Shown here: positions 6,770 through 43,575 of the stretch, piece after piece
Layout of the letters: every line of letters begins with the position of its first letter
How positions within the stretch are numbered: the first letter of the stretch is position 1
From: a virus
Virus record (IMG/VR): IMGVR_UViG_3300031993_000003
Length of the DNA: 64,000 bases
Direction: 5' to 3' (one strand)
The notes under the pieces: model-generated
What the model saw: only the letters and a program-made list of their open reading frames with translations
What the model was told of the DNA's origin: nothing
The model's database searches: none
Position numbers and translations under genes: made by a program

Positions 6770-6782
6770 TTTGCTATATTTG
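6770..6782 (+). promoter_or_regulatory. TTTGCTATATTTG promoter 13-mer (Bacteroidota-type -7 box TAnnTTTG).
   Basis: Exact 13-mer; GAGGAGG lies 2 nt after the motif and the ATG at 6800 is 18 nt downstream. Confidence 0.6.
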
Positions 6783-8414: not shown

Positions 8415-9233
8415 ATGATGCACGAGTTCTTCGAGAGACTGGAAGTGTTCTCCCTGATACAGGCGGACCCCAAGTACAAGTCATTCACCTACGACAAGAT
8501 ACCGATGGTGGGTGTTACCAAGGTGTGCCAGGCATGCACGCCTCCTTTCGACAAGGTGTCTGCTGCGACCAAGAAGGCAGCCAAGCTGACTGCGGAAGGT
8601 ACCCCTACCACGCCTGAACAGCTCATAGCCGAGTGGGACCTCTCTGGAAAGATTTCGACGGAACTGGGATGCGCCCTGCATTCCTACATCGAGGCTTCTC
8701 TCGCCAACAAGTTCGCCCGCTACCCTGCCGACGAAATCAAGAAGGCGTTCCAGGGAGAGGACCCGGTGTTCCAGAGGTACACCAAGGTATGCACCCAGTT
8801 CGACGCGATGCGCGATAAGTTCCGCGGCAAGATGATACCGGTGGCATCAGAGCTAGTGGTCGGCGACCCCTCGACGATGATATGCGGCATCATCGACCAG
8901 CTCTTCTGGAACAAGACGGCGAACGAGTTCCAGATTTGGGACTGGAAGACGAACAAGGAACTCAAGATGTCCTCCCAGTTCATGCTGAACGACCCCCTGG
9001 GACACGTATCTACATCGGACGTGGACAAGTTCTCGCTGCAGGTTTCATTCTACAAGAAGATTTTCACCAAGATGACGGGCATACCCATCGGCAACTGCTA
9101 CATCTGCTGGTTCTCCTCGGAACGCGAGGCGGGACAGATAATCCCGGTCAAGGACATGAGCAGGGAAGTGGAGATACTGGAGCAGCTCTCGACGAAGCAG
9201 CGCGGCATCGTTGACCAGAATTCGGTATTCTAA
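8415..9233 (+). CDS. PD-(D/E)xK-family nuclease (RecB/Cas4-like motifs GIIDQLF … QIWDWKTNK).
   Basis: Motif II 'hhhD' and motif III 'E/D-x-K' spaced as in RecB-family phage exonucleases. Confidence 0.45.
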   Translation: MMHEFFERLEVFSLIQADPKYKSFTYDKIPMVGVTKVCQACTPPFDKVSAATKKAAKLTAEGTPTTPEQLIAEWDLSGKISTELGCALHSYIEASLANKFARYPADEIKKAFQGEDPVFQRYTKVCTQFDAMRDKFRGKMIPVASELVVGDPSTMICGIIDQLFWNKTANEFQIWDWKTNKELKMSSQFMLNDPLGHVSTSDVDKFSLQVSFYKKIFTKMTGIPIGNCYICWFSSEREAGQIIPVKDMSREVEILEQLSTKQRGIVDQNSVF

Positions 9234-9541
9234 TGGATATAGAGAAGATAGAGAAGATTAAGGCGTCGTTCACCGACGAGCAGAGGGAACTCTACAACGT
9301 GCTGCTGGGCGATACGGAGAAGCTCCACCGCGAGTGGAAGCTCTGCCACGACATGTACAGGAAGGCGGCCGCCGTGCTCAACGCCAAGGAGACAGGGCCG
9401 GAGGTCCGCCTCCTTCTTCGTCCGGCATCTACGGACTACTGGAACCGCCGCAGGCTCGCTCTCGAGCGCACCATGGAACAGGTAGGCATGAACGACCTGC
9501 TGGTTACCTGGCGCAAGGAGGCCTCGGATGCCGAGAAGTAA
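9233..9541 (+). CDS. Hypothetical protein.
   Basis: 102-aa ORF with start overlapping the upstream stop. Confidence 0.45.
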   Translation: MDIEKIEKIKASFTDEQRELYNVLLGDTEKLHREWKLCHDMYRKAAAVLNAKETGPEVRLLLRPASTDYWNRRRLALERTMEQVGMNDLLVTWRKEASDAEK

Positions 9542-13427: not shown

Positions 13428-13799
13428 GTTGTAGAACAGAGGAACACATATGCGGATAGAAGAAATACAGATAATGGAAAATGATAATAACGGTGTAATC
13501 AATCTTGTTCGAGACCGGTTATTCTGGCGGGCTTGGGAGAGGTCAGCCTATCTATTCAATATGCACATCATTCCATACAAGGTCCAGCATAAGTCATATA
13601 AGCAGATTAATAAGGAAATGCTATTTATTGGATTTCCCGATACTTCATTGGATAAGGTTAAACGGATATCAACTGGACAACATTTCGATATACATATTGT
13701 ATCGGAATCACATATTATTAAATGAAAATTGTTATAAACTATTGATAACTGTATAAAAATAATGTATATTTAATATAGTTATTGGTAGGAAACTCAATT

Positions 13800-14426
13800 A
13801 TGAGAGCAAAAGAAGCATTAAACCTGTTGGATGTCACAAGGGAAACTCTATGCCGTTATGTCCGTGAAGGCAAGATTAAGGTAAAACATAAATATAGCCG
13901 AACACGGTATGAATACGATGACGATTCGGTATATGCGTTCATCGGTAAGGTAGTAGATAAGAAGAACCGTGATATAGTTACCTATTCCCGTGTATCTACA
14001 CAAAACCAGAAGAAGCAACTTGAAGAGCAGAAACAACGGATATACGATTCGTGCGTAGCTCGTGGATTGATAGTCTCCAAGCAATACAGCGACATTAAGT
14101 CTGGTATGAACAGTGACCGCAAAGACTTCCAAGAGATAATTAGACGAGTAATCCAGGGCGAACTGGAACTAGTGGTCGTGGAGAACAAGGACAGACTGAT
14201 TCGTTTCGGCTTCGACTTGCTGGAACAGATTTTCAAGTTCTATGATTGTAAAATTCTTGTATTGAATGATGTGCTAGATAACAAGACATACGAACAGGAA
14301 CTCACCGAAGACCTAATCTCGATAATCCACTACTTCACGATGAAGAACTATTCTCACCGTAGAAAGCTCAATACGTTGAGAAAAGAACTAGAAAAGCAAG
14401 AAAACCCATCCAAATTGAATAAATAG
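13800..14426 (+). CDS. tnpA: IS607-type TnpA: N-terminal MerR-like HTH fused to a serine-recombinase (resolvase) catalytic domain.
   Basis: …IVTYSRVSTQNQKKQLEEQ… (catalytic Ser motif Y-x-R-V-S-T), preceded by a HTH. Confidence 0.65.
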   Translation: MRAKEALNLLDVTRETLCRYVREGKIKVKHKYSRTRYEYDDDSVYAFIGKVVDKKNRDIVTYSRVSTQNQKKQLEEQKQRIYDSCVARGLIVSKQYSDIKSGMNSDRKDFQEIIRRVIQGELELVVVENKDRLIRFGFDLLEQIFKFYDCKILVLNDVLDNKTYEQELTEDLISIIHYFTMKNYSHRRKLNTLRKELEKQENPSKLNK

Positions 14427-14474
14427 TTATAGACAACTATATAAACTTATAGATGAAATGGAATAAATATCTAT

Positions 14475-15770
14475 ATGAAGACGGTTAGACTGACGATAAG
14501 CAACAAGATAGATGTGCTGGACGACATGAGGCTGTTCAGCAGTATCGTGCGTGTTGCGTTTAACCGTTACCAGGACGGGATGGAAGAGAAGGAAGTACGA
14601 GCGTACTGCAATTCGATGTTCGACCACAACAGCTGGTTCATCCAGTCCGCCGTCAAGGAAGCTGCTGCGCTGTACAAGCTGAATGGCGAGAAGCATATCC
14701 TGTTCGGTGGAAAGAACAACCTGCACCAGTACCTTGTCGGGATTATAGACAAGACTACTTTCAAGTACCGCAGGATGTTCCCGATAGGCATCCAGGGCGA
14801 GAAACTGCATAAGGGCAATAGGCTGTTTGCCTTTGACCTTGACCATCAACGACTTACATACAAGCCCAGCAAGGACAGACACGTAGACATTCGGTTCCTT
14901 CCGATGAAGAAGAAAATCACCAGTGAAATTGCAAAGGTACAGCAACTTGTCGAACAGAACAAGATAACGGTTTCCGTCAAGTTGTCGGAAAAATATGTAT
15001 GGCTTACCTATGACGAGAGCCTAATATACAATGCGAGGTTCAAGAAGCTAGACTGTAGGCGAGTTCTCGGCATCGACATGAATCCTAACTACATCGGGCT
15101 TTCGGTAATAGAGTTCGACAAGAACGACGAGTTCAAGGTTCTCCATAAGCAAGTGTTCGATTTAAGCAAGCTGACGGGTTCTTCCGGCAAGGCGAGCACT
15201 GACAGTAAGTCCAAGTACATCACGAGCAAGCTAAGGCACGAGACGATTGCAATTGCTCACGAGATTTCCAAACTAGTAGATGTATGGAAGTGCAAGACCG
15301 TGGCTATCGAAGACTTGAGCATCAAGCCGAAAGACCAGAAGAAAGGCAAGAAACTAAACAAGCTGTGCAACAACAAATGGGAACGCCGATTGTTCGTTAC
15401 GAAGCTGAAGATGCTTGCTAACCTGCATAGATTCGATTTGGTTGAGGTCAATCCAGCGTATTCATCCATCGTAGGAAACTTTGCCTACGGTAGCGAGAAT
15501 ACGCCAGACATGGTTGCTGCCAGCATCGAAATCGGCAGACGTGCATACAAGAAATTTGAAAAGAGATGGTTCTATCCAAGATTCAATATTCAGTTCCGAG
15601 ATGAGCAATGGAAGCAAACACTCGGTCCGGTGGATGACTGGAAAGGACTATTCTCAAGAATCAAAGAAACGGGACTGAAATACCGTTTCCTGCTACGGGA
15701 CTATGTCCAGAATGCAGTCTTCAGCAAGAACTATATACAAAAGTGCTATAATATTTACACTTTTGCATAG
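14475..15770 (+). CDS. tnpB: TnpB-like RuvC-fold nuclease (OrfB of IS607/IS605).
   Basis: RuvC-I GIDMN, RuvC-II AIEDL, RuvC-III-like ENTPDMVAAS; 431 aa immediately downstream of tnpA. Confidence 0.6.
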   Translation: MKTVRLTISNKIDVLDDMRLFSSIVRVAFNRYQDGMEEKEVRAYCNSMFDHNSWFIQSAVKEAAALYKLNGEKHILFGGKNNLHQYLVGIIDKTTFKYRRMFPIGIQGEKLHKGNRLFAFDLDHQRLTYKPSKDRHVDIRFLPMKKKITSEIAKVQQLVEQNKITVSVKLSEKYVWLTYDESLIYNARFKKLDCRRVLGIDMNPNYIGLSVIEFDKNDEFKVLHKQVFDLSKLTGSSGKASTDSKSKYITSKLRHETIAIAHEISKLVDVWKCKTVAIEDLSIKPKDQKKGKKLNKLCNNKWERRLFVTKLKMLANLHRFDLVEVNPAYSSIVGNFAYGSENTPDMVAASIEIGRRAYKKFEKRWFYPRFNIQFRDEQWKQTLGPVDDWKGLFSRIKETGLKYRFLLRDYVQNAVFSKNYIQKCYNIYTFA

Positions 15771-16035
15771 TTATATATAGTTTTTGTATTTTAAAGTCTT
15801 TCATACCGAGAATACGGGAATTCCTTGATGGCACACTTGGACTGCAGTTGCACCCGAATAAGATACAGCTCCAGTCCATATATCATGGCTTCGAGTTTCT
15901 TGGAACATACATATTGCCATGGAGGAAGTATCCAGGCCGGAGGCTTCGTAAGAAATTGGCATCCGGCATCAATATGGACGACTATCATGGGGTTCTTTGC
16001 TATCTGAATGGTACTGAATTCCACAAATAGCGACT

Positions 16036-18406: not shown

Positions 18407-18556
18407 GTTGTTTGTAATTTCCATATTCGTCTCGATGCTCGCCCTCTTCGCCCTCCAGTCATGCGGCGACGAGGTCACCGGCCAGCCCGACGAGGAATGC
18501 ATCACAATAGACGACAGCACCAGGCTGTGCGGGGATAAAGAATGGACCGTATACTG
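18398..18556 (+). CDS. Small lipoprotein (MNKLFVISIFVSMLALFALQSCGDE…).
   Basis: Signal peptide plus LQSC lipobox; its 3' end is part of the tandemly duplicated segment. Confidence 0.4.
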
Positions 18557-18769
18557 AAATCGTATTCGCGCGAGGAAATCGCCGAGATGGAACCGGGAAA
18601 GGACCGGTTCTACCTCGCCGAGGACGTCGAGAAGGTAATCGGGGAACTGAACAGGAAGCTCCGGGAGAAACCTCCCGCTGCTACCGGGAGTGACCGGTGG
18701 ATTACCAACGGGCAGGTTCCGGACGACATCCATGAGAACAAAAGGGGCAAGTTGGGAATCTTCGGCTGA
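18542..18769 (+). CDS. Small hypothetical protein, paralog A (MDRILKSYSREEIAEMEPGKDRFYLAEDVE…).
   Basis: 75 aa; the first 30 aa are identical to the ORF at 18826. Confidence 0.5.
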   Translation: MDRILKSYSREEIAEMEPGKDRFYLAEDVEKVIGELNRKLREKPPAATGSDRWITNGQVPDDIHENKRGKLGIFG

Positions 18770-18825
18770 CACCGGGAGGAATGTATAACCATCGACGACA
18801 GCACCAGGCTGTGCGGGGATAAAGA

Positions 18826-19083
18826 ATGGACCGTATACTGAAATCGTATTCGCGCGAGGAAATCGCCGAGATGGAACCGGGAAAGGACCGGTTCTACCTC
18901 GCCGAGGACGTCGAGAGGGAAATCGGCAGGCTCCGGAGGGAACTCCGGGAGGTTAAGGAAGCTCCCGGGGAGAACCGGGAGAAGGTTGTCATATACAAGG
19001 ATGACCGCTGGATATGTAACGGGAATGTCCCGGACCCGGACCCTGCAGAAATCGAGCGTCAAAAGTGGGGACTTTTCGGTTGA
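18826..19083 (+). CDS. Small hypothetical protein, paralog B.
   Basis: 85 aa; its N-terminus is identical to 18542-18769 and its C-terminus has diverged. Confidence 0.5.
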   Translation: MDRILKSYSREEIAEMEPGKDRFYLAEDVEREIGRLRRELREVKEAPGENREKVVIYKDDRWICNGNVPDPDPAEIERQKWGLFG

Positions 19084-19097
19084 CGCCGGGAGGAACC

Positions 19098-19110
19098 TTT
19101 GCTATATTGG
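19098..19110 (+). promoter_or_regulatory. Variant promoter motif TTTGCTATATTGG upstream of the tRNA-Gly fragment.
   Basis: 12/13 match to the 13-mer. Confidence 0.4.
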
Positions 19111-19116
19111 GGGGCA

Positions 19117-19174
19117 TGCGGCGGTAATTCAGTAGGTAGAATATCTGCCTTCCAAGCAGACTGTCGCCGGTTCG
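19117..19174 (+). pseudogene. tRNA-Gly(UCC) 5' portion (acceptor 5' strand through T-loop TTCGA), interrupted by an insertion element.
   Basis: GCGGCGG-TA-ATTC/GAAT D-arm; anticodon stem TCTGC/GCAGA with loop CTTCCAA; T-stem GCCGG; the sequence then leaves the tRNA fold after TTCGA. Confidence 0.55.
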
Positions 19175-21166
19175 ACCGTTGGCTGAAATCTACTCAAACT
19201 TACCAGCAGTAAGAATTGTGTGATTTCCCATGGCCTGCTTGAACAGGCCACTGCAACGGCATTTTTCCAGGCACCTCCTTACCTTCCACATGGGCAGGCT
19301 CTTTGGCTGGAAGTACCTGTATCCGCCATCCCCTGCCAGTTCAAGCAGGTTCCCCCTTAACACGGTCGAGGTAACGCGGAATTTTATGTTTACCGAACTG
19401 TTGCGGTCTGCATTGTCCTGATGGTGGCATTCCACACAGTCGAAAGTTTCCTGGTCAGGGCGGTTACGGTCGTCTATCGCGCCGCATACCGGGCACATCT
19501 TGGAAGTATATTCCGGGTGTATCAGCGAAAGCGATTCGCCGTACTTCGGGGCGATGTGCTCGACCTCGTCCTTCAGAGATGAAAGTCCTATCCGGAGATG
19601 CAGACGGCCCAGGTTCATACCGTTCCTATCCGTCGAATCCAGCCGCCTTCCCTGGAACCCGGTCAGGTTCTCCATCACTATGTGACGGTAACCCCGCGAG
19701 TACAGGTCCTTGCACATGGCCGCTATGCGTCTTTTGTTTGACTCGTTCAGCTTCAAGGTAATGGCTTCAATGCGTTTCTTGTCCTTGTGAGAAATCTTGA
19801 ACGCATCATGTTCTTCGTCCTTAGCAAACCGGGCATTGTAGTTCTTCTGCTTCTGGTCTATTTTTAGCAGTTCGGTCTCCAGTTCCGCAACGAGTTCCTC
19901 GTCGTGTGGGATGAACTCCCCGGTGCTCAAAGCGAACATGTTGTGCTTGGAATTGACGTCTATGCCGACGGTATTTTCTTCTGTAATTTCATCGGTATTC
20001 TTGTAACGGTAACCGTCCCTTGCGAGGACTATATGGATGTCCTTTCCTCGGACAACCATCGTATAGGATGTATCTTCCCCGTTGCAGTAGCGGTTCAACG
20101 AGCGATGGTAGGCCTTGTTGTATTTGAATGGCATACACAAGGTATTCTTGCTATCACCACGGTATCCTTGGTCGAACCAATCCCATGAAAATTCGATGAA
20201 ATAGTCGAACTTTCCGGTTTCGTTACGCCTAGCATCTACGATAGGACGCTTGATACGGCTACGACCGGAAAATGTGAGCGATTCGAAGGTAATCTTGCCA
20301 CGCTTCTCGTATTCGGAGAATACAGATGTCCTTCTTGACAGCGCCAACCGCATGAGGCGGGCGAAGCCGAACTTGCGTATCTTGGCCAGTATCGTTCTAT
20401 AGAACTTCTGCTTGGATTCTACTGCGGTAGGAATAGCAGATTCAAGCCAATAAACGGTTTCTTCCTTGCCGTACCGAGCAAGCCAAGTAAGTACCTTCGT
20501 TAGTTCAGTCTTCTTGGTATGGCACTCTATGGACTTCAAGTCACCTTTCTTGTGTCCCTTGACATTTATCTTGTAGAACGAGGGAACAAGTTCCTCTACC
20601 TTGACGAACTCAATCTTCTTGCGGATTGCATCAAAGCGAAGCTGGTACGCTCGCCACACATCTTCAATAGCCTTCTTCAAGTAGTGGCTAGATAGGCGTG
20701 TATTGAATGTCGGGTTGAATAAATTGAACGCCTCGAACTTAGACATATCCTGGAAGCCGAGCATATCCGAGAAGAACACTTCCGATATGTCGTTCCTTAC
20801 TGCACGGATTTCCTCTGCTCGATGAATAATTTCGGCTCGCTTGGTGTCGGACAACAGGATAGGATAGAACGCGGCGGAGAACTGCGACTTGTACCTATCC
20901 TTCAATGTCCAACAATGATTGCTCATACAATACAGAAATGGCTCGTTAGGAACTTATTGTGAGATTCAATTCCAAACGAGCCATCATAAAGGTCTCTTAC
21001 GGAGCTTAATGAAGAATCTCACTAATTCATTAAACCTATATACATTAAGTTTATAACAATATACAAAATTTTATGCCGAATTTCAACTTAAAAATACACT
21101 AAATGCATGCAAATTTAGTTAGATTTAAGTAAGATTAGGCAGATTTTAAGTTAGCTGTGGGTAACC
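19175..21166 (-). mobile_element. TnpB-only (IS200/IS605-family, IS1341-like) insertion element of ~2 kb inserted in the T-loop of tRNA-Gly(UCC).
   Basis: tRNA 5' portion at 19117-19174 and the matching 3' portion (CCGGT-CCGCCGC) at 21167-21178; TnpB ORF between them; a TTAC tetranucleotide at the element end next to the 3' tRNA piece (minus strand). Confidence 0.5.
19190..20926 (-). CDS. tnpB: TnpB-like RuvC nuclease (578 aa) with a C-terminal zinc finger.
   Basis: RuvC-I …VGIDVNSKHN…, RuvC-II …HIVMENLTGF…, CPVCG…CVECHH zinc finger plus RuvC-III DNADRNSSVNI. Confidence 0.65.
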   Translation of the reverse strand: MSNHCWTLKDRYKSQFSAAFYPILLSDTKRAEIIHRAEEIRAVRNDISEVFFSDMLGFQDMSKFEAFNLFNPTFNTRLSSHYLKKAIEDVWRAYQLRFDAIRKKIEFVKVEELVPSFYKINVKGHKKGDLKSIECHTKKTELTKVLTWLARYGKEETVYWLESAIPTAVESKQKFYRTILAKIRKFGFARLMRLALSRRTSVFSEYEKRGKITFESLTFSGRSRIKRPIVDARRNETGKFDYFIEFSWDWFDQGYRGDSKNTLCMPFKYNKAYHRSLNRYCNGEDTSYTMVVRGKDIHIVLARDGYRYKNTDEITEENTVGIDVNSKHNMFALSTGEFIPHDEELVAELETELLKIDQKQKNYNARFAKDEEHDAFKISHKDKKRIEAITLKLNESNKRRIAAMCKDLYSRGYRHIVMENLTGFQGRRLDSTDRNGMNLGRLHLRIGLSSLKDEVEHIAPKYGESLSLIHPEYTSKMCPVCGAIDDRNRPDQETFDCVECHHQDNADRNSSVNIKFRVTSTVLRGNLLELAGDGGYRYFQPKSLPMWKVRRCLEKCRCSGLFKQAMGNHTILTAGKFE

Positions 21167-21179
21167 CCGGTCCGCCGCT
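21167..21179 (+). pseudogene. tRNA-Gly(UCC) 3' portion (T-stem 3' strand CCGGT + acceptor 3' strand CCGCCGC + discriminator).
   Basis: CCGCCGC is the exact complement of the 5' acceptor strand GCGGCGG at 19117. Confidence 0.5.
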
Positions 21180-21452
21180 CTAATGTAAAGGAAATTTTAC
21201 AAGGAATTTCCGGCAAAACCCTTGAAATCGTCAAGCCACTTTGCTAAACTTAACCACAAAGGATAATGAAAATGCAAACTCTGCAATTAAATATCATCGC
21301 ATGTGAAGAACAGTTGGCCAACGCCGACCGATTTTTCGCGTATGCGTATGATAGCAAATTGCTAGAGTTGCACCGTTGATTTCCTTGTTTGATGTTTGAA
21401 GAGGACCCGGTTGCAACCATGCAGCCGGGTTCTTTTCTTATATCCGACATAT

Positions 21453-21528
21453 GGGCCTGTGGCAGAATGGAATTGCCCCTCCCCTGCAAGGAGTGTGTTT
21501 TTGTGGGTTCGAATCCCACCAGTGTCCA
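21453..21528 (+). tRNA. tRNA-Ala(UGC)-like, with G3:U wobble, an 8-nt 3' acceptor strand (bulged U), C33 and an unusually long T-rich variable loop.
   Basis: GGGCCTG-TG-GCAG…TTGC; anticodon stem CCTCC/GGAGT with loop CCTGCAA; T-arm GTGGG-TTCGAAT-CCCAC; 3' CAGTGTCC-A. Confidence 0.45.
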
Positions 21529-21587
21529 CTAACGGTAGCTCCCGGAGAGCTGCCGGCAGATTGACAGTCCGGAATGAATTTCTTTTT

Positions 21588-21660
21588 GGGCCATTAGCTC
21601 AATGGTAGAGCGCCTGTCCGGCAGACAGGAGGTTATCGGTTCGAGCCCGATATGTGTCCA
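21588..21660 (+). tRNA. tRNA-Ala(GGC), with G3:U, a bulged U in the 3' acceptor strand and C33.
   Basis: GGGCCAT-TA-GCTC-AATGGTA-GAGC-G-CCTGT-CCGGCAG-ACAGG-AGGTT-ATCGG-TTCGAGC-CCGAT-ATGTGTCC-A. Confidence 0.55.
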
Positions 21661-21670
21661 GTATATCTTT

Positions 21671-21742
21671 GGGTCATTAGTTCAATGGTAGAACTCCCGG
21701 TCCGCATCCGGGGGATACCGGTTCGACTCCGGTATGTATCCA
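21671..21742 (+). tRNA. tRNA-Ala(CGC), with G3:U, a bulged U in the 3' acceptor strand and C33.
   Basis: GGGTCAT-TA-GTTC-AATGGTA-GAAC-T-CCCGG-TCCGCAT-CCGGG-GGAT-ACCGG-TTCGACT-CCGGT-ATGTATCC-A. Confidence 0.55.
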
Positions 21743-21746
21743 CTAA

Positions 21747-21823
21747 GGTCACTTAGCTCAGCAGGATTTCAGAGCGCCGTGCTACGAACGCGGAGGCCGG
21801 GAGTTCGAACCTCTCAGTGACTA
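21747..21823 (+). tRNA. tRNA-Arg(ACG).
   Basis: GGTCACT…; anticodon stem CCGTG/CGCGG with loop CTACGAA; T-arm GGGAG-TTCGAAC-CTCTC; 3' AGTGACT-A. Confidence 0.65.
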
Positions 21824-21838
21824 CTAACAAACTAATTC

Positions 21839-21911
21839 GGTCCCTTCGGCCAGTGGTTGAAGCCATCGCACTTTCTATGCGAAGACCCCGGTTCGAATCC
21901 GGGAGGGACTA
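21839..21911 (+). tRNA. tRNA-Glu(UUC).
   Basis: GGTCCCT…; stem TCGCA/TGCGA with loop CTTTCTA; T-arm CCCGG-TTCGAAT-CCGGG; 3' AGGGACT-A. Confidence 0.6.
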
Positions 21912-21915
21912 CTAC

Positions 21916-21989
21916 GTTCGTCTAGCTCAATTGGTTAGAGCTTCTGTCTGATATGCAGAGGGTTGCACGTTCAAGTCGTGCGGCGAACA
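21916..21989 (+). tRNA. tRNA-Ile(GAU).
   Basis: GTTCGTC-TA-GCTC…GAGC; stem TCTGT/GCAGA with loop CTGATAT; T-arm GCACG-TTCAAGT-CGTGC; 3' GGCGAAC-A. Confidence 0.65.
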
Positions 21990-21994
21990 CTAAT

Positions 21995-22067
21995 GCCGCT
22001 GTAGCTCAGTTGGTAGAGCGGAAGCCTGAAGAGCTTCGCGTCGGACGTTCGAGCCGTCCCGGCGGCA
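21995..22067 (+). tRNA. tRNA-Phe(GAA).
   Basis: GCCGCTG-TA-GCTC-AGTTGGTA-GAGC; stem GAAGC/GCTTC with loop CTGAAGA; T-arm GGACG-TTCGAGC-CGTCC; 3' CGGCGGC-A. Confidence 0.7.
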
Positions 22068-22549: not shown

Positions 22550-23245
22550 ATGAATTACACTAAGATTTACGCAAGTATTGTCTTGCGAGCTCAGACTGAA
22601 CGAACTGAGCGGTTAGCCTTGAAGAAACAGGGCCAGTATTTCGAGAACCATCATATAATACCTCGTTGCTTAGGCGGTATCGACAATGCATCTAATATGG
22701 CGTTATTAACTGGGCGCGAACATTTTATATGTCATTGGTTGCTAGTTAAAATTTATAGGCCGAATACTGTTGAATATTCTAAAATGATTCTAGCGCTGTG
22801 GCGAATGCGCTCTGCCGGTCAAGACCATCATGGTCGATATATCAACGCTCGTACATACGAATATCTTCGTGAAGACTATGCCCATGCTATTGGTAAAATT
22901 ACGTCTGTGACTCAGCACGGTTCAAAAAATTCTCACTATGGCGCTAAATGGTACACGAATTCGTATGATGGGACTGTTATAATATCTAAAACTGCATTAG
23001 AGTTTCCTTGGGTGCTTGGTCGAAATTTATTTAAAGGGGAATCGGTTTGTCTACAAACTTCTAGACAGCATATGCGGTTGTATGCACAAAGGTTATGGAA
23101 TCAATTCCATTCCGGTGATTATACTTCATTAAGAGACTTTAAGCGAAGAGAACATATTTCTGGTGCTTTGGTGAGCCGATTATTTTTACATCATATTCCG
23201 TTATACAGTACATTAAATGCTAATGGTCGTAAAAAAGTATTGTAA
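22550..23245 (+). CDS. HNH homing endonuclease.
   Basis: HHIIPRCLGGIDNASNMALLTGREHFICH motif; located in an AT-rich island between tRNA genes. Confidence 0.7.
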   Translation: MNYTKIYASIVLRAQTERTERLALKKQGQYFENHHIIPRCLGGIDNASNMALLTGREHFICHWLLVKIYRPNTVEYSKMILALWRMRSAGQDHHGRYINARTYEYLREDYAHAIGKITSVTQHGSKNSHYGAKWYTNSYDGTVIISKTALEFPWVLGRNLFKGESVCLQTSRQHMRLYAQRLWNQFHSGDYTSLRDFKRREHISGALVSRLFLHHIPLYSTLNANGRKKVL

Positions 23246-33661: not shown

Positions 33662-35269
33662 TTGATTGACCCGAAGAAAAGAGCCGCTGCCGAGATGGCG
33701 ATTAAGGATGCCGTGCTGGCCATGTCAAGGACCGCCCACGGCATGCTCCCGGTGTACATGGGCATGCGCCAGAGGGCGACCGATGACCCCGCCGTTACCG
33801 TGAGGACAAACGTGGGCAACGGCGGTGTCGAGCTCGAGTACAACGTGGACTTCGTAACCAAGCTGGAGACGTCCATGCTTGGCGCAGTCGTGTACATGCA
33901 GTGCCTGAAGGTGGCGCTGCATCACTGCGACCACAGGAAGAAGGAACCGCTGGCCATGCTGAAGCTCGCGAGCGACATAGTGGTCGCCGAGTACGCGAGG
34001 AAGGTGGTGGACACGTCCAGGGCCGACAACTACGAGATTCTCAACAGGCTGTTCCCTAGCATCTGGGAGCACTGGGACGTGCTGGGCAAGCACGGGTTCA
34101 TGCCGGAGAACGACCTGGTGCTCGAGAAGCTGTTCGCCATATTCTCCGAGGAGCAGGAGTCGATAGAGAAGCAGAAGGGCATGAAGCCACGCGAGGAAAG
34201 GGAACAGTCCTCCTCCGAGGGAGAACCCGGGGAGGAAGGCGAGGAATCCGGGGAAGAGTCAGATGAAGGCGAACCGCAGGATTCCAAGTCCGGGGGTGAC
34301 GAGGGTAAAGGCGATGGAGAAGACTCTGACGATTCAGGGGAAAGTTCTCCAGGTGACTCCGGGGAGCAGCGGGAAGGCGACGGGGACAACCCGGGTGAAG
34401 GCGAGGGCGAAGGGGACAAGTCCGATGAAGGCGACGGGGAACCCGGTGACGGGGAACCCGGCGAGGGCGAAGGCGATGGAGAATCTGACGGTGACGGGGA
34501 CGCCGAAGGCGATACCGGGGATGCACCGGCAGCTCCCGGGGCAGGCACCGGTAACTACGAGGCGATGGAGAAGTACTTCTCGCTGGAGAGCGCCGAGGCC
34601 GAGACCGAGAACTGGGCGCAGGACGAGGCGGCAACCGACCGCATAACGGCGACAGTGATGGACGCGCTGGACAAGGGAATGTTCGATAGGATGCGTGGAA
34701 AGCTCCCGCTGGCCCTGCGCGATGCCAACCGGCTGAAGGTGGACACCGCCGCGATGTTCAGGAAGTTCCTTACGAGCGTGATGGATGACGAGACCAAGTC
34801 TAGCTGGGGCAGGCGGAACCGGAAGTACATGAGGTACGGGGTGATTGCCCCGGGATACCTGTATGACGAGACGCCGAGGATACTCGTTTGCGTGGACGTG
34901 TCCGGGTCGATGTACGTGGACAACCTGATAGGCGAGTGCCTGAAGGTCATGGACGCAGTGTGCAACGGGATATCGGTGGACCTGGTTTACTGGGATGCCG
35001 TGTGCAGCCCGGTGTTCGACACCCCCAAGACTATCAAGGAAGTGGAGATTTACGGTGGCGGCTATACGAACCCCGACTGCGTCCTGCAGAAGCTGGGTCC
35101 CGACAGGTTCAAGTACGACGGGCTGGTGTTCATAACCGACTGCGAGTTCTCATGGAACGAGCCTCCCCGGGCGAAACAGATTATGATACTCCGTGCCGGT
35201 GACAGGAAGTACGACTTTCCTTCCTGGTGCGTGTACAAGGATGAACTGAAGAATTTCATAAACAAATAG
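33662..35269 (+). CDS. von Willebrand factor A (vWA) domain protein with a long acidic D/E/G low-complexity linker (CobT-like).
   Basis: MIDAS motif VCVDVSGSM; ~120-aa acidic repeat EGEPGEEGEESGEESDEGE…GDGEPGEGEGDGESDGDGD. Confidence 0.6.
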   Translation: MIDPKKRAAAEMAIKDAVLAMSRTAHGMLPVYMGMRQRATDDPAVTVRTNVGNGGVELEYNVDFVTKLETSMLGAVVYMQCLKVALHHCDHRKKEPLAMLKLASDIVVAEYARKVVDTSRADNYEILNRLFPSIWEHWDVLGKHGFMPENDLVLEKLFAIFSEEQESIEKQKGMKPREEREQSSSEGEPGEEGEESGEESDEGEPQDSKSGGDEGKGDGEDSDDSGESSPGDSGEQREGDGDNPGEGEGEGDKSDEGDGEPGDGEPGEGEGDGESDGDGDAEGDTGDAPAAPGAGTGNYEAMEKYFSLESAEAETENWAQDEAATDRITATVMDALDKGMFDRMRGKLPLALRDANRLKVDTAAMFRKFLTSVMDDETKSSWGRRNRKYMRYGVIAPGYLYDETPRILVCVDVSGSMYVDNLIGECLKVMDAVCNGISVDLVYWDAVCSPVFDTPKTIKEVEIYGGGYTNPDCVLQKLGPDRFKYDGLVFITDCEFSWNEPPRAKQIMILRAGDRKYDFPSWCVYKDELKNFINK

Positions 35270-35273
35270 TCCA

Positions 35274-36554
35274 ATGAGAATCGAAGAAGCGAAAGATATC
35301 GAGAGTGTTGAAAGAGGTCTCCGGCTTGTGCGGGAGATTGAGTCGTGCGGATATACCGCATGCATCGCGGGCGGCTGCGTACGCGACCTTGTAAGGTGGA
35401 AGATTAGCCTTTCGCACGACCCGGACATACATGACGTGGATATAGCGACCAACATGCCCATGGAAAGGCTGAAGGAGCACTTCAGGTGCGCCAGCAACAA
35501 CGGGGAGGCCCACGGTACCATCCTGGTGCTGTTCGAGGATGTTCCGTACGAGGTGACCCAGTACAGGGCCGACGGGAAGTACACCGACGGGCGGCATCCC
35601 GATTCGGTGAAGTGGGCCGATACGTTCGAGGAAGATACCCGGAGAAGGGACTTCACCATGAACTCGATGGGACTCGATTCCGATTACAATGTGCTGGACT
35701 ACCACGGCGGGGAAGATTCCATACGTTTTGGCGAGATTGCAACCGTAGGCGACCCCATAGAGAGGTTCAACGAGGATGCCCTGAGGATTGTGCGTGCCTA
35801 CCGGTTCGCCTCCCGGTTCGGAATGTCGATTTCCCCGGTGACTTCCGCGGCCTGCATGGCGCTTGCCGGGAGGGTCTCCCACCTTACCCCGGAGAGACTG
35901 CATGACGAGTTCTACAAGACTGCGTCGTACGGGGTGAAGGCGTTCGCCGAGTTCATCAGCTACCTCGCCGAGGGCGTCGGTCCGTACATATGCGGCGGCA
36001 TAGACTGGAAGGAACTGTCCACCCAGATGCACCGCATAAGGTCCTCCCAGTTGCTCCAGTGGGACCCCGACTATGCCCTCGCGCTGGTCTTCGACACCGA
36101 GGAGCAGATGAGGGCCTTCCGGTGCAGCCTGGACGAGATAAGGGCGATGAAGTTCATCCACTCGTACTACCCACGGTACCTTGCCGGGGAGCTCGACCTG
36201 GTGGACTTCGTGGACGGCACCAACGACCCACGGTGGGACGCGCTGAGGGCCTATGCGATATCCAGGCAGGGGTTCTTCGTGCTGCGCCCCGACGAGGAGG
36301 CGAGGTTCCGCTCGTTCAGGTACAGGTATCCTACGGCCGGGGACATAAGCAAGGAACTTGAGGAGTCCGGGGTAGCATCCGGGAAGCAGTTTGGGGAGTA
36401 CCTCAAGGAGGTCCGGAAGATGGCCTACCGGGAGATGCTGGCTAGGAAGGATATTGGTAAAGATGACCTGCATAAACTGGTTGCCGAAGCAAGGAGACAA
36501 GTCGACAGCCGATGCACGCAGTCCTCAGTATCATCTTCTGGCTCCTCGGAATAG
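35274..36554 (+). CDS. cca: tRNA nucleotidyltransferase (CCA-adding enzyme), class II.
   Basis: Head-domain motifs GGCVRD…DVD, RRDFTMN and DPIERFNEDALRIVRAYRF. Confidence 0.75.
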   Translation: MRIEEAKDIESVERGLRLVREIESCGYTACIAGGCVRDLVRWKISLSHDPDIHDVDIATNMPMERLKEHFRCASNNGEAHGTILVLFEDVPYEVTQYRADGKYTDGRHPDSVKWADTFEEDTRRRDFTMNSMGLDSDYNVLDYHGGEDSIRFGEIATVGDPIERFNEDALRIVRAYRFASRFGMSISPVTSAACMALAGRVSHLTPERLHDEFYKTASYGVKAFAEFISYLAEGVGPYICGGIDWKELSTQMHRIRSSQLLQWDPDYALALVFDTEEQMRAFRCSLDEIRAMKFIHSYYPRYLAGELDLVDFVDGTNDPRWDALRAYAISRQGFFVLRPDEEARFRSFRYRYPTAGDISKELEESGVASGKQFGEYLKEVRKMAYREMLARKDIGKDDLHKLVAEARRQVDSRCTQSSVSSSGSSE

Positions 36555-41674: not shown

Positions 41675-42985
41675 CTAATGACCTTTTATCGAATCCGGGA
41701 CTCTTAGCTCCGAACCATCTATCCTGAATATTCCGGTAGGCAACCAGAAGAAGCCTTCCTTCCTAGCCAGTCTGGACAACTCATCGGTACGAGGTATGGC
41801 GGGCAGCTCTAATTCGTGGTTCCTGGCGGCATTTATGTCCGCGTCAATCACGAGTCCACATAACGGGCAGATGTAGAGCTTTCCCTTCCTCGCCTTCTTG
41901 AGTACGTGGCCGCACCCGGAGCAGCGTTGAGAACGGTAGGCGTTCGACTGCGGATTTATTCGGACACCGAACTCCTCCGCGACTTGCGCCAGCCTGATGA
42001 CTATCTCCGGGTTGGACCAATGTTTAAGTTTTCGTGAAGTATTCCTTCCGTATTTGATGTTGTCAATCTTCTCCAGGCCTATTTCCTTAATGCCTGAGAA
42101 GTTCAGCCGCTTGATTGCGTAGTTGATATAGTTCCTTCTCTCGCACTGGCAGCGTTCGAATGCCTTGGAACCCTTCGTCTTGCGGCACATCTTGTCCGTT
42201 ATCGTGTCCAGGTTGACTTTCAGTTTCCTGGTAGGCTCTCCCTTCCTGGGAGCATCTAGAACCATGTCGGCCGTAGTCTGGCCGTCAGATAGGGAAATGC
42301 AGGTAAGTAAGCCCTGGTCTGCACCGACCTTCTCTCCTTCTTCCTTCTGTGCGAATTCCTTCTGCCAACGGAGCTGGATTCCGTACTCGTCGATGAGGTA
42401 CCCGTTACAGGCTTCCCACGTCCCGTCGAGATACTTCGCCATGTGTTTATGACGGCATACAGGAACGTTGAATATATCAAGACCGGTGGACCTTATCTTC
42501 AGGAATCCATAAAATTCCCCTTCGGGTGTTGGGTAGAACTCGGCACACTTGCTTGAAATCTCTATACCCGCATCCGATAGGTCGGGTTTGGAAGGGTTCC
42601 TCTCCTCTATGACTTCCCACAACCGTTCGAGATAATTGCCTTGTGCTGCTTCCTTGTCGAATACGTATAGCCTCTTGGCGTTCTTCGAGCAGATGGCGCG
42701 AAGCTTCCCGCTTAGCTGGGTAACCAGAGAACTCATCATCCTGGCAGAAAGCCAGGTATCTATCTCGAACCTGTTGTAGTCCAGGTACTTCGGAAGCTCG
42801 TACTTGAACTTGTCGGGATTGAACTCGTGCCAGCCGTCCTCTTCCTGCCATCGGTATCCGTTCGACCATATGTCGTCGCAAATCAGCTGCATCACGCGCC
42901 GCCATTCGGCAAGGAGGCGGTCTATCGACTCCCTCTTGCCGGTATTGGCGAACTTGAGCGTATGTCTGGTGGCGCGAACTATCAT
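41675..42985 (-). CDS. tnpB: TnpB-like RuvC nuclease with zinc finger.
   Basis: RuvC-I GADQG; RuvC-II LEKIDN; CSGCG…CPLCG zinc finger plus DADINAARN (RuvC-III). Confidence 0.65.
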   Translation of the reverse strand: MIVRATRHTLKFANTGKRESIDRLLAEWRRVMQLICDDIWSNGYRWQEEDGWHEFNPDKFKYELPKYLDYNRFEIDTWLSARMMSSLVTQLSGKLRAICSKNAKRLYVFDKEAAQGNYLERLWEVIEERNPSKPDLSDAGIEISSKCAEFYPTPEGEFYGFLKIRSTGLDIFNVPVCRHKHMAKYLDGTWEACNGYLIDEYGIQLRWQKEFAQKEEGEKVGADQGLLTCISLSDGQTTADMVLDAPRKGEPTRKLKVNLDTITDKMCRKTKGSKAFERCQCERRNYINYAIKRLNFSGIKEIGLEKIDNIKYGRNTSRKLKHWSNPEIVIRLAQVAEEFGVRINPQSNAYRSQRCSGCGHVLKKARKGKLYICPLCGLVIDADINAARNHELELPAIPRTDELSRLARKEGFFWLPTGIFRIDGSELRVPDSIKGH

Positions 42986-42990
42986 GGCTA

Positions 42991-43575
42991 CTAGTCTTCC
43001 GAGTTGAGTGCTTCCTTCATCTTGTTCGCCTTGTTGTGCCCCCTACGGGCTCCGTACAACCGGCAACAGAAACTGGTCACGATTGCTATCATGTCCTTGA
43101 TGATGTCCTGCTCGTTGTTGTCGTTCGGATACATCACGTCTATCGAGCAGCCGTTTCGCGAAAGCAGCCTCTCTATGTAGTTGAAGCCGAACCTGGTAAG
43201 CCGGTCCTTGTTCTCGCAGATGATTGTTGTCGGCTCCGAGTAGAGCATTTCCCAGAATTTCGGCCTGTTGTCGTTCATGCCGGAAGCAATTTCCTTGTAG
43301 ATGGCATCCACCTTGTAGCCGTTATGCGCGGCATAGTCCTTGCACCGTTCTACCTGACGGTTGAGGTCGTCCTTCTTGTCGTGACTGCTTACACGGGCAT
43401 ATATTACAATCCTGGGTCGGTCAAGTTCGGAATGGTTCGGGGTTATCGTGACGAATATGCTCTTGGTATCCGGGTCCTGGTAGGCATTGAGTATCTTCCC
43501 CATGTGGAACCAGCGGTGGGCCGTCCTGTACTTTATCCCATGCTCCTTGGCATATGTCGATAGCTTGATGTCCAT
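42991..43575 (-). CDS. tnpA: IS607-type TnpA (MerR-HTH + serine recombinase).
   Basis: …IVIYARVSSHDKKDDLNRQ… catalytic Ser motif; N-terminal HTH (YRTAHRWF). Confidence 0.65.
   Translation of the reverse strand: MDIKLSTYAKEHGIKYRTAHRWFHMGKILNAYQDPDTKSIFVTITPNHSELDRPRIVIYARVSSHDKKDDLNRQVERCKDYAAHNGYKVDAIYKEIASGMNDNRPKFWEMLYSEPTTIICENKDRLTRFGFNYIERLLSRNGCSIDVMYPNDNNEQDIIKDMIAIVTSFCCRLYGARRGHNKANKMKEALNSED

Follow-up and report, generated by a model that had tools for sequence, protein, structure and literature searches.

What divides a glycine tRNA gene into two distant halves on a virus genome, and is the tRNA still made? This question is raised by a 64,000-nt stretch of the virus record IMGVR_UViG_3300031993_000003, hereafter the window, in which the two parts of a tRNA-Gly(UCC) gene flank a gene for TnpB, a predicted RNA-guided nuclease. 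An initial annotation had attributed the interruption to a transposable element of the IS200/IS605 type. From the analysis described below we conclude, with a probability of about 85%, that the insert is a non-autonomous element of the IS607 family, composed of a left end, tnpB and a right end that encodes the guide RNA of TnpB (ωRNA, or reRNA). It was placed in the tRNA gene at a GG dinucleotide and most probably inactivated the tRNA.

The split tRNA gene and the boundaries of the insert

The 5′ part of the tRNA gene (Table 1) has a canonical layout, with acceptor strand GCGGCGG, D-arm ATTC/GAAT, anticodon arm TCTGC-CTTCCAA-GCAGA, variable loop CTGTC and T-stem strand GCCGG. The T-loop sequence TTCGA stops at 19175, tRNA base 58; the 58-nt half described in the initial annotation is thus present, shifted by one base at either end (19118 to 19175 rather than 19117 to 19174). 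The bases that follow, CC at 19176-77, are one of two copies of the crossover dinucleotide, and the CC at 21165-66 on the + strand lies directly 5′ of the CCGGT that opens the 3′ part. The 3′ strand of the T-stem and the acceptor complement CCGCCGC were found after the insert just as annotated, at 21167-78, with T as discriminator base at 21179. The two halves form 7 of 7 acceptor pairs and 5 of 5 T-stem pairs, one of them G·U.

The 5′ half alone scored 35.4 bits with the Rfam tRNA model (gathering score 29). In the window as it stands, ARAGORN reported 19 tRNAs, none at the split site and none a tRNA-Gly. Sequences joined in silico around the junction points were recognized by ARAGORN as tRNA-Gly(tcc). 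As a cloverleaf, the 73-nt join folds at -27.0 kcal/mol, compared with a minimum free energy of -28.9; without the insert, the gene has its 7-bp acceptor stem, all three arms (D, anticodon and T) and the anticodon UCC, so that the 3′ piece does complete a foldable tRNA. After joining, the T-arm reads GCCGG-TTCGACC-CCGGT, exactly as in a real bacterial tRNA-Gly(UCC) on an unrelated metagenome contig (L027). The boundaries and the joins confirm an insertion precisely within the T-loop of an otherwise canonical tRNA-Gly(UCC); the insert is 1,989 nt long when one GG copy is counted.

The ends of the element were defined to the base by aligning the flanks of copies in relatives (13 left ends). Similarity among the copies starts at GGG/TTAYCAACAGCTAACCTAAAATCTACC and stops at GAGTAGATTTCAGTCAACGG/T, the slash marking the element boundary. 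All 10 distinct left flanks end in GGG, and the right flank starts with T in 16 of 16 copies. At the left end of the window copy, similarity to relatives breaks off exactly at GGG/TT, and the conserved left end reads GG/TTAYCAACAGCTAAC. On the element strand the two junctions are ...ACCGG-GG-TTACCCACAGCTAAC... and ...TTTCAGCCAAC-GG-TCGAACCGGCG; the only sequence common to both is GG, which corresponds to the CC of T-loop positions 59-60 on the tRNA strand, and the GG at 21165-66 (- strand; CC on +) is its second copy. Neither a terminal inverted repeat nor an inverted repeat linking both termini was found. Motifs resembling AAATCTAC are repeated in the left end and inverted in the right end (seen by eye and partly counted). 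GG stands at both ends and in the target, with a 2-bp exchange, no target-site duplication and short repeated motifs at the ends. IS607 has likewise been described as inserting at GG, preferably at (G)GG, without duplicating its target, and as having short repeats but no inverted repeats at its ends (Chen et al. 2018, PMC6188088).

A natural pair of contigs contains one site in both the empty and the filled state. The empty site in L051 reads ...GACAG GG TTATCGGCAGC..., and the filled site in L050 reads ...GACAG GG TTACCAACTGTAAAC...(tnpA, tnpB)...TTGCCAAC GG TTATCGGCAGC..., so that insertion occurred by GG exchange without duplication. This pair is a tandem of IS607 elements: a full tnpA-tnpB element occupies the left-junction GG of a TnpB-only element (L050 1-4760 versus L051 2600-3010), and the right end of the inserted element abuts the TnpB-only left end (CAAC GG TTATCGG). 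For the tRNA locus, the empty-site sequence was reconstructed as ...GCCGGTTCGACCCCGGTCCGCCGC.

No transposase lies between the tRNA halves. The window copy has no tnpA and is therefore non-autonomous, and its assignment to a transposase type comes from full-length relatives. Four of these (L005, L050, L054 and L059), whose TnpBs are 82-83% identical to that of the window, carry a TnpA of 212-218 aa directly upstream of a 579-aa TnpB. This TnpA has a MerR-type helix-turn-helix and a resolvase catalytic domain and is thus a serine recombinase; the L005 protein scored 176.9 bits on the NCBIfam IS607 transposase model NF033518 (cut-off 110). A GG crossover, the GGG target-adjacent motif (TAM) of ISXfa1 TnpB and a fixed right-flank nucleotide contained in the guide-RNA scaffold have been reported (Yoon et al. 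2023, PMC10711439), and IS607 TnpB has been found to promote retention through cutting of the donor joint (10.1101/2023.11.20.567912). The element joins the known IS607 family, and its mode of insertion is ordinary; the phage-borne TnpB group to which it belongs is large and unnamed.

Table 1. Features of the interrupted tRNA gene, its insert and two further IS607-type units in the window
Feature	Position	Strand	Remarks
Promoter-like phage motif TTTGCTATATT	19098..19108	+	10 nt upstream of tRNA 5′ end
tRNA-Gly(UCC) 5′ part, bases 1-60	19118..19177	+	acceptor to T-loop TTCGACC; from Rfam, ARAGORN on joins and direct reading
Predicted 20-nt ωRNA guide CGAACCGGCGACAGTCTGCT	19155..19174	-	antisense to tRNA bases 57-38; deduced from right-end boundary and IS607 rule (PMC10711439)
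ωRNA (reRNA) scaffold and right end, ~205 nt	19176..19380	-	overlaps last ~63 tnpB codons; ends ...GTAGATTTCAGCCAACGG
tnpB, 578 aa	19190..20926	-	antisense to tRNA
Left end, ~240 nt	20927..21166	-	starts GG/TTACCCACAGCTAACTTAAAATCTGCC; repeated AAATCTAC-like motifs; AT-rich promoter-like stretch
Structured 5′ leader, ~100 nt	20938..21035	-	two hairpins, loops paired over 9 bp (kissing loops)
Predicted TAM GGG	21165..21167	-	immediately 5′ of left end; (G)GG is the preferred IS607 target
tRNA-Gly 3′ part	21167..21179	+	T-stem CCGGT 21167-71, acceptor CCGCCGC 21172-78, discriminator T 21179
Second, divergent IS607-type unit	13782..15770	+	TnpA 13782-14426; 431-aa TnpB-like open reading frame 14475-15770
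Third IS607-type unit	41675..43575	-	TnpA 42991-43575; 436-aa TnpB 41675-42985

TnpB, its predicted guide RNA and a structured leader

The open reading frame, profile matches and invariant residues bear out the annotated 578-aa TnpB with RuvC and zinc finger and no accompanying TnpA. The protein matched PF07282 (Cas12f1-like TNB domain) with 51 bits and NCBIfam guided_TnpB with 88.9 bits. The split RuvC residues D323 (GIDVN), E419 (VMENL) and D507 (NADRN), as well as the zinc-finger cysteines C478, C481, C497 and C500 of the TNB insertion, are invariant in an alignment of 55 relatives that reaches down to 22% identity. The stop codon is as close to the tRNA junction as had been noted, at 12 nt rather than about 13. 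In its predicted fold, the protein resembles TnpB, Cas12f, Casλ and Fanzor; the two values obtained for each fold comparison were 16.5 and 443 for Casλ 8dc2, 16.2 and 356 for Cas12f, 15.5 and 329 for ISDra2 TnpB, 15.3 and 344 for the TnpB of ISFba1 (IS607), and 14.8 and 344 for Fanzor2. Casλ was ranked first by Foldseek, and fold searches put it ahead marginally; the sequence profile ranked Cas12f and TnpB above it. Unlike Casλ (Cas12l, phage-encoded) and Cas12f, the protein has no CRISPR array and a transposon setting, and sequence identity to them is only 12-16%. We consider it a TnpB with an enlarged N-terminal half; the predicted structure offers a specific relationship to Casλ only as a lead.

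Close relatives of this TnpB number more than 1,000 at 78-100% identity, many of them on contigs of 200-450 kb; where a sample is named, it is a metagenome from pig gut or from another gut or rumen-type source. At E<1e-30, the protein matches about 100 clusters formed at 50% identity. No GenBank phage is a near match to the window at the DNA level, and TnpB matches among these phages are partial, at 31-37% identity only. The clade is divergent and enlarged. In a related phage contig (L013), a HEARO RNA (IscB-type ωRNA, 97.7 bits) lies at 9196-9436 (-), ~3.5 kb downstream of the TnpB element; it represents another kind of OMEGA element carried by these phages.

Nucleotide conservation extends over the final ~205 nt of the element, which have a multi-stem fold. 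With RNAalifold on 16 copies, the consensus contained 62 pairs, 12 of which showed compensatory changes, and the terminal CAACGG pairs with an upstream CCGTTG. From the consensus structure, a structured RNA is predicted that overlaps the 3′ end of the gene and stops at the right end of the transposon, as is the case for ωRNAs. It had no match in Rfam, RAGATH-18 included. An ωRNA downstream of the tnpB stop had been anticipated in the initial annotation, and the guide predicted here is indeed antisense to the tRNA. The fixed right-flank T, the complement of A19175, precedes the predicted guide and by the IS607 rule belongs to the scaffold.

The initial annotation had also suggested an RNA-guided, homing-type insertion with a guide that matches the tRNA. 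The flank beyond the 3′ end of tnpB is indeed tRNA sequence. Every TnpB guide is the DNA that flanks its own element, and the guide matches the tRNA for this reason; the match arises by construction and is no evidence of adaptation to tRNA homing. At the borders of 18 other copies of the family, ARAGORN and Rfam detected no tRNA or tRNA fragment; tRNAs are not the homing target of the family. A single near-match to GGG-T-guide was found in the window, at the occupied junction, which has CGG in place of GGG; this fits self-avoidance through the TAM. In 185,579 bacterial and archaeal species representatives, neither GGGG followed by the 20-nt guide nor the guide together with this T-loop was found.

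A second structured RNA lies in the left end, as a leader whose second hairpin stops ~12 nt before the tnpB ATG. In 15 distinct sequences, 98.2% of the cells were paired, with 12 compensatory pairs compared with at most 4 in slid controls; the covariation score was reached by no shuffle. The count of 25 G·U cells versus 1 A·C makes the tnpB sense strand the more likely source of the RNA. No Rfam match was obtained for this leader. The equivalent region is present in L002, L004, L006, L007, L009-L014, L017, L046, L049 and L050. The ~240-nt left end with its leader is specific to the TnpB-only form; full-length tnpA-tnpB relatives have no such sequence before tnpB. Lying just ahead of the ATG, the leader may control TnpB translation or mRNA stability.

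Competing explanations and the state of the tRNA

Several observations weigh against the conclusion stated at the outset. An unoccupied allele of this tRNA-Gly was not found, and all six contigs with the exact 85-aa neighbouring protein are occupied. The closest other phages, 67-72% identical by their ligase, carry tRNA-Gly(CCC) at the syntenic place. The tRNA halves show no decay, which fits a recent insertion, yet some continued use is possible. A TnpA of the cognate type is not in the window, and the two IS607 TnpAs that it does contain are only 30-37% identical to that type. TnpB itself falls below the curated NCBIfam cut-offs (guided_TnpB 88.9 versus 100; IS607_TnpB 27.5 versus 350).

The reading of the initial annotation, in which a Y1 TnpA inserted a single-stranded IS200/IS605-type element 3′ of a TTAC target, has in its favour that TTAC on the element strand (GTAA, 21161-64) does abut the left junction and that TnpB-only (IS1341-type) elements are common in the IS200/IS605 family. 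The tetranucleotide, however, lies inside the conserved left end and belongs to the element. It varies in relatives (TTAT, TTGC, TTGT, TAGC), and as target DNA it would give a T-loop of 11 nt instead of the canonical 7, so that the tRNA is restored only when TTAC is removed. The full-length relatives carry serine recombinases and no Y1 transposase, and GG is found at both junctions and is exchanged for GG in the filled and empty pair. The insert was therefore not assigned to IS200/IS605, a reading that we now find hardly tenable. It shares with the TnpBs of that family (ISDra2, IS1341-type) an ωRNA that overlaps the tnpB 3′ end, a guide taken from flanking DNA, common TnpB-only copies and a presumed role in homing or retention; it differs in having no Y1 TnpA and no external motif of the TTAC/TTGAT type, with a GG crossover instead. 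Still smaller, and in our view negligible, is the chance that the tRNA-like pieces are unrelated or were brought together by a chimeric assembly. For this there is only the general risk of metagenome assemblies. The 2.3-kb region is base-identical on contigs of three independent samples and from two assembly pipelines, and therefore is no assembly artefact. The 3′ piece completes all 12 stem pairs and a T-arm equal to that of a real tRNA, and its first base directly follows the left end, whose limit was defined independently.

An insert that is removed at the RNA level, as an IStron, a group I-like intron or an archaeal bulge-helix-bulge intron, would leave the tRNA functional. IS607-family IStrons that splice out of host transcripts exist, the undecayed tRNA halves have kept their own promoter-like motif, and the left end of the element does contain a structured RNA. 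Against these points, an Rfam scan of both strands of 18500-22000 at E<=1 matched no group I or group II intron and no other ribozyme, and the ends of the insert are not linked by a long inverted repeat. Nor do these ends pair on the tRNA strand any better than shuffled sequences do (9% of shuffles equal or better). IStrons are co-oriented with the gene that they interrupt, whereas tnpB and the leader here are antisense to the tRNA, and by its G·U pairs the leader RNA belongs to the tnpB strand. We know of no bacterial intron at T-loop position 59/60. Splicing is thus very unlikely, and membership among IStrons or group I introns was rejected on the missing Intron_gpI match and the antisense orientation. 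The likeness to IStrons such as CboIStron and CdISt1 is limited to an IS607-type element with TnpB inside a gene and a structured left-end RNA; unlike them, it has no detectable group I intron, is antisense to the gene and has a leader of only ~100 nt. The insert might also benefit the phage as a weapon, with TnpB-ωRNA aimed at intact tRNA-Gly(UCC) genes of the host chromosome or of competing phages. The tRNA region read by the guide is widely conserved, with an identical 29-nt stretch on several unrelated metagenome contigs and a full GGGG-plus-guide target on one (L027); the nuclease residues are intact, and the insertion is present in every sampled copy of the phage. Such a role is nonetheless improbable, given that the species representatives searched above contain no target, that other family members occupy unrelated sites with unrelated guides, as expected of a selfish element, and that cutting of insert-free co-infecting phages is the known homing role of TnpB.

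We therefore return to simple inactivation by an IS607-family element, and the tRNA gene is most likely dead. The initial annotation proposed to look in related genomes for an uninterrupted tRNA-Gly at this position; an empty allele of the site did not turn up. The exact 41-nt tRNA pattern had 0 matches in viral contigs, and the 29-nt pattern was found in JGI metagenomes only in unrelated bacterial tRNA-Gly genes. The syntenic tRNA-Gly(CCC) of the related phages is intact and stands behind the same promoter motif. A dead tRNA gene would presumably be tolerated, since phage tRNAs are accessory. Twelve copies of the motif TTTGCTATATT stand in the window, all before genes and on the + strand, with 0.01 occurrences expected by chance (positions 6770, 13416, 16039, 19098, 23757, 28985, 31600, 37451, 40879, 41234, 43651 and 47758). 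We take it to resemble the Bacteroidota -7 box TAnnTTTG. The copy at 19098 would transcribe the tRNA 5′ half and then run antisense into the ωRNA and the 3′ end of tnpB.

Just upstream of the split tRNA are two adjacent, paralogous small open reading frames of 75 and 85 aa (18542-18769 and 18826-19083, +), which have the N-terminus MDRILKSYSREEIAEMEPGKDRFYLAEDVE in common and no family match. Elsewhere in the window (33662-36554, +), an HNH endonuclease frame (phrog_1314) is followed directly by one for tRNA nucleotidyltransferase, the CCA-adding enzyme (phrog_2244), which fits a phage that keeps its own set of tRNAs.

Related elements, proposed course of events and significance

Three IS607-family units are present in the 64-kb window, and the second and third belong to sub-families unlike that of the tRNA-borne element. 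The second unit, of low GC content, has a TnpA with 153.1 bits on the NCBIfam IS607 transposase model (cut-off 110) and 30% identity to the L005 TnpA; its 431-aa TnpB-like frame gave weak TIGR01766 matches only. A 70-codon frame right after this unit (15818-16030, +), ending ...LHPNKIQLQSIYHGFEFLGTYI..., presumably resembles the C-terminal part of a reverse transcriptase and could be a remnant of a gene that the unit interrupted. The third unit scored 174.8 bits as IS607 transposase and 66.5 bits as guided_TnpB, and its TnpA is 37% identical to the L005 type.

Compared with IS607 of Helicobacter pylori and ISXfa1 of Xylella fastidiosa, the tRNA-borne element has the same GG at ends and target with (G)GG preferred, no duplication or terminal inverted repeats, a serine recombinase partner with MerR-type helix-turn-helix in its full-length relatives and a predicted right-end guide RNA; the GGG before the left ends and the T after the right ends fit a GGG TAM and a fixed right-flank base. 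It differs from them in that the window copy is without tnpA, that its TnpB has ~580 aa rather than ~390-430 aa owing to the enlarged N-terminal half, that it has its own ~240-nt left end with a kissing-loop leader, and that its home is in large gut and rumen phage genomes. Homing endonuclease genes are found in the tRNA clusters of phages, for example segB of T4, and the element resembles these as a selfish nuclease gene in a phage tRNA region. Unlike theirs, its recognition would be RNA-guided, and the tRNA gene itself is interrupted, whereas they lie between genes. The window also has a gene of the latter kind, a 231-aa homing-endonuclease frame at 22550-23245 (+; phrog_655, 130.8 bits) that lies within the tRNA array, on an island of low GC content (0.37-0.41).

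From the anatomy, boundaries, GG junctions, family membership, intact catalytic residues and covariation of both RNAs observed above, together with published work on IS607, the following course of events can be proposed. A serine-recombinase TnpA acting in trans would integrate a circular double-stranded intermediate by a 2-bp crossover at GG, that is, at the CC of T-loop positions 59-60 on the tRNA strand, with GGG/T as the site on the element strand. Nothing beyond the shared dinucleotide would be duplicated, and the halves of the tRNA gene would come to lie 1,989 nt apart, with probable loss of tRNA function. TnpB would be expressed from the left-end promoter behind the structured leader and would bind the ~205-nt ωRNA scaffold specified by the 3′ end of its gene, with the guide read from the flank. 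Scarless excision would restore the tRNA. The TnpB-ωRNA complex, if active as a nuclease with the predicted TAM, would then cut unoccupied sites with GGG, T and a match to the guide, either on the excision product or on a co-infecting phage with an intact tRNA-Gly, and homologous repair would copy the element back in. The occupied site would be spared because CGG, not GGG, precedes the match to the guide.

By itself the finding is of small significance, as a clean natural IS607-type knockout of a phage tRNA gene. The case shows that exact boundaries can be called from the GG crossover and GGG TAM rules where inverted repeats and duplications are absent. The parts most worth specialist attention are the TnpB clade and the leader RNA. 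The leader is a new candidate for a cis-regulatory RNA motif. The enlarged TnpB clade circulates in big gut and rumen phages, often with several IS607 units per genome; it offers a compact set of nucleases with predictable TAM and scaffold, and is a candidate system for RNA-guided homing during phage co-infection. One may go further and see in the ~580-aa clade a phage-resident IS607 lineage that acts as an RNA-guided gene drive between co-infecting large phages, with its nuclease controlled by the kissing-loop leader, and that represents the type of TnpB ancestral to effectors such as Casλ, although we regard this extension as doubtful. If the gene-drive part were true, intact tRNA-Gly alleles of co-infecting phages would be converted; if the Casλ part were true, phage type V effectors would have arisen from enlarged phage-borne TnpBs of this kind.

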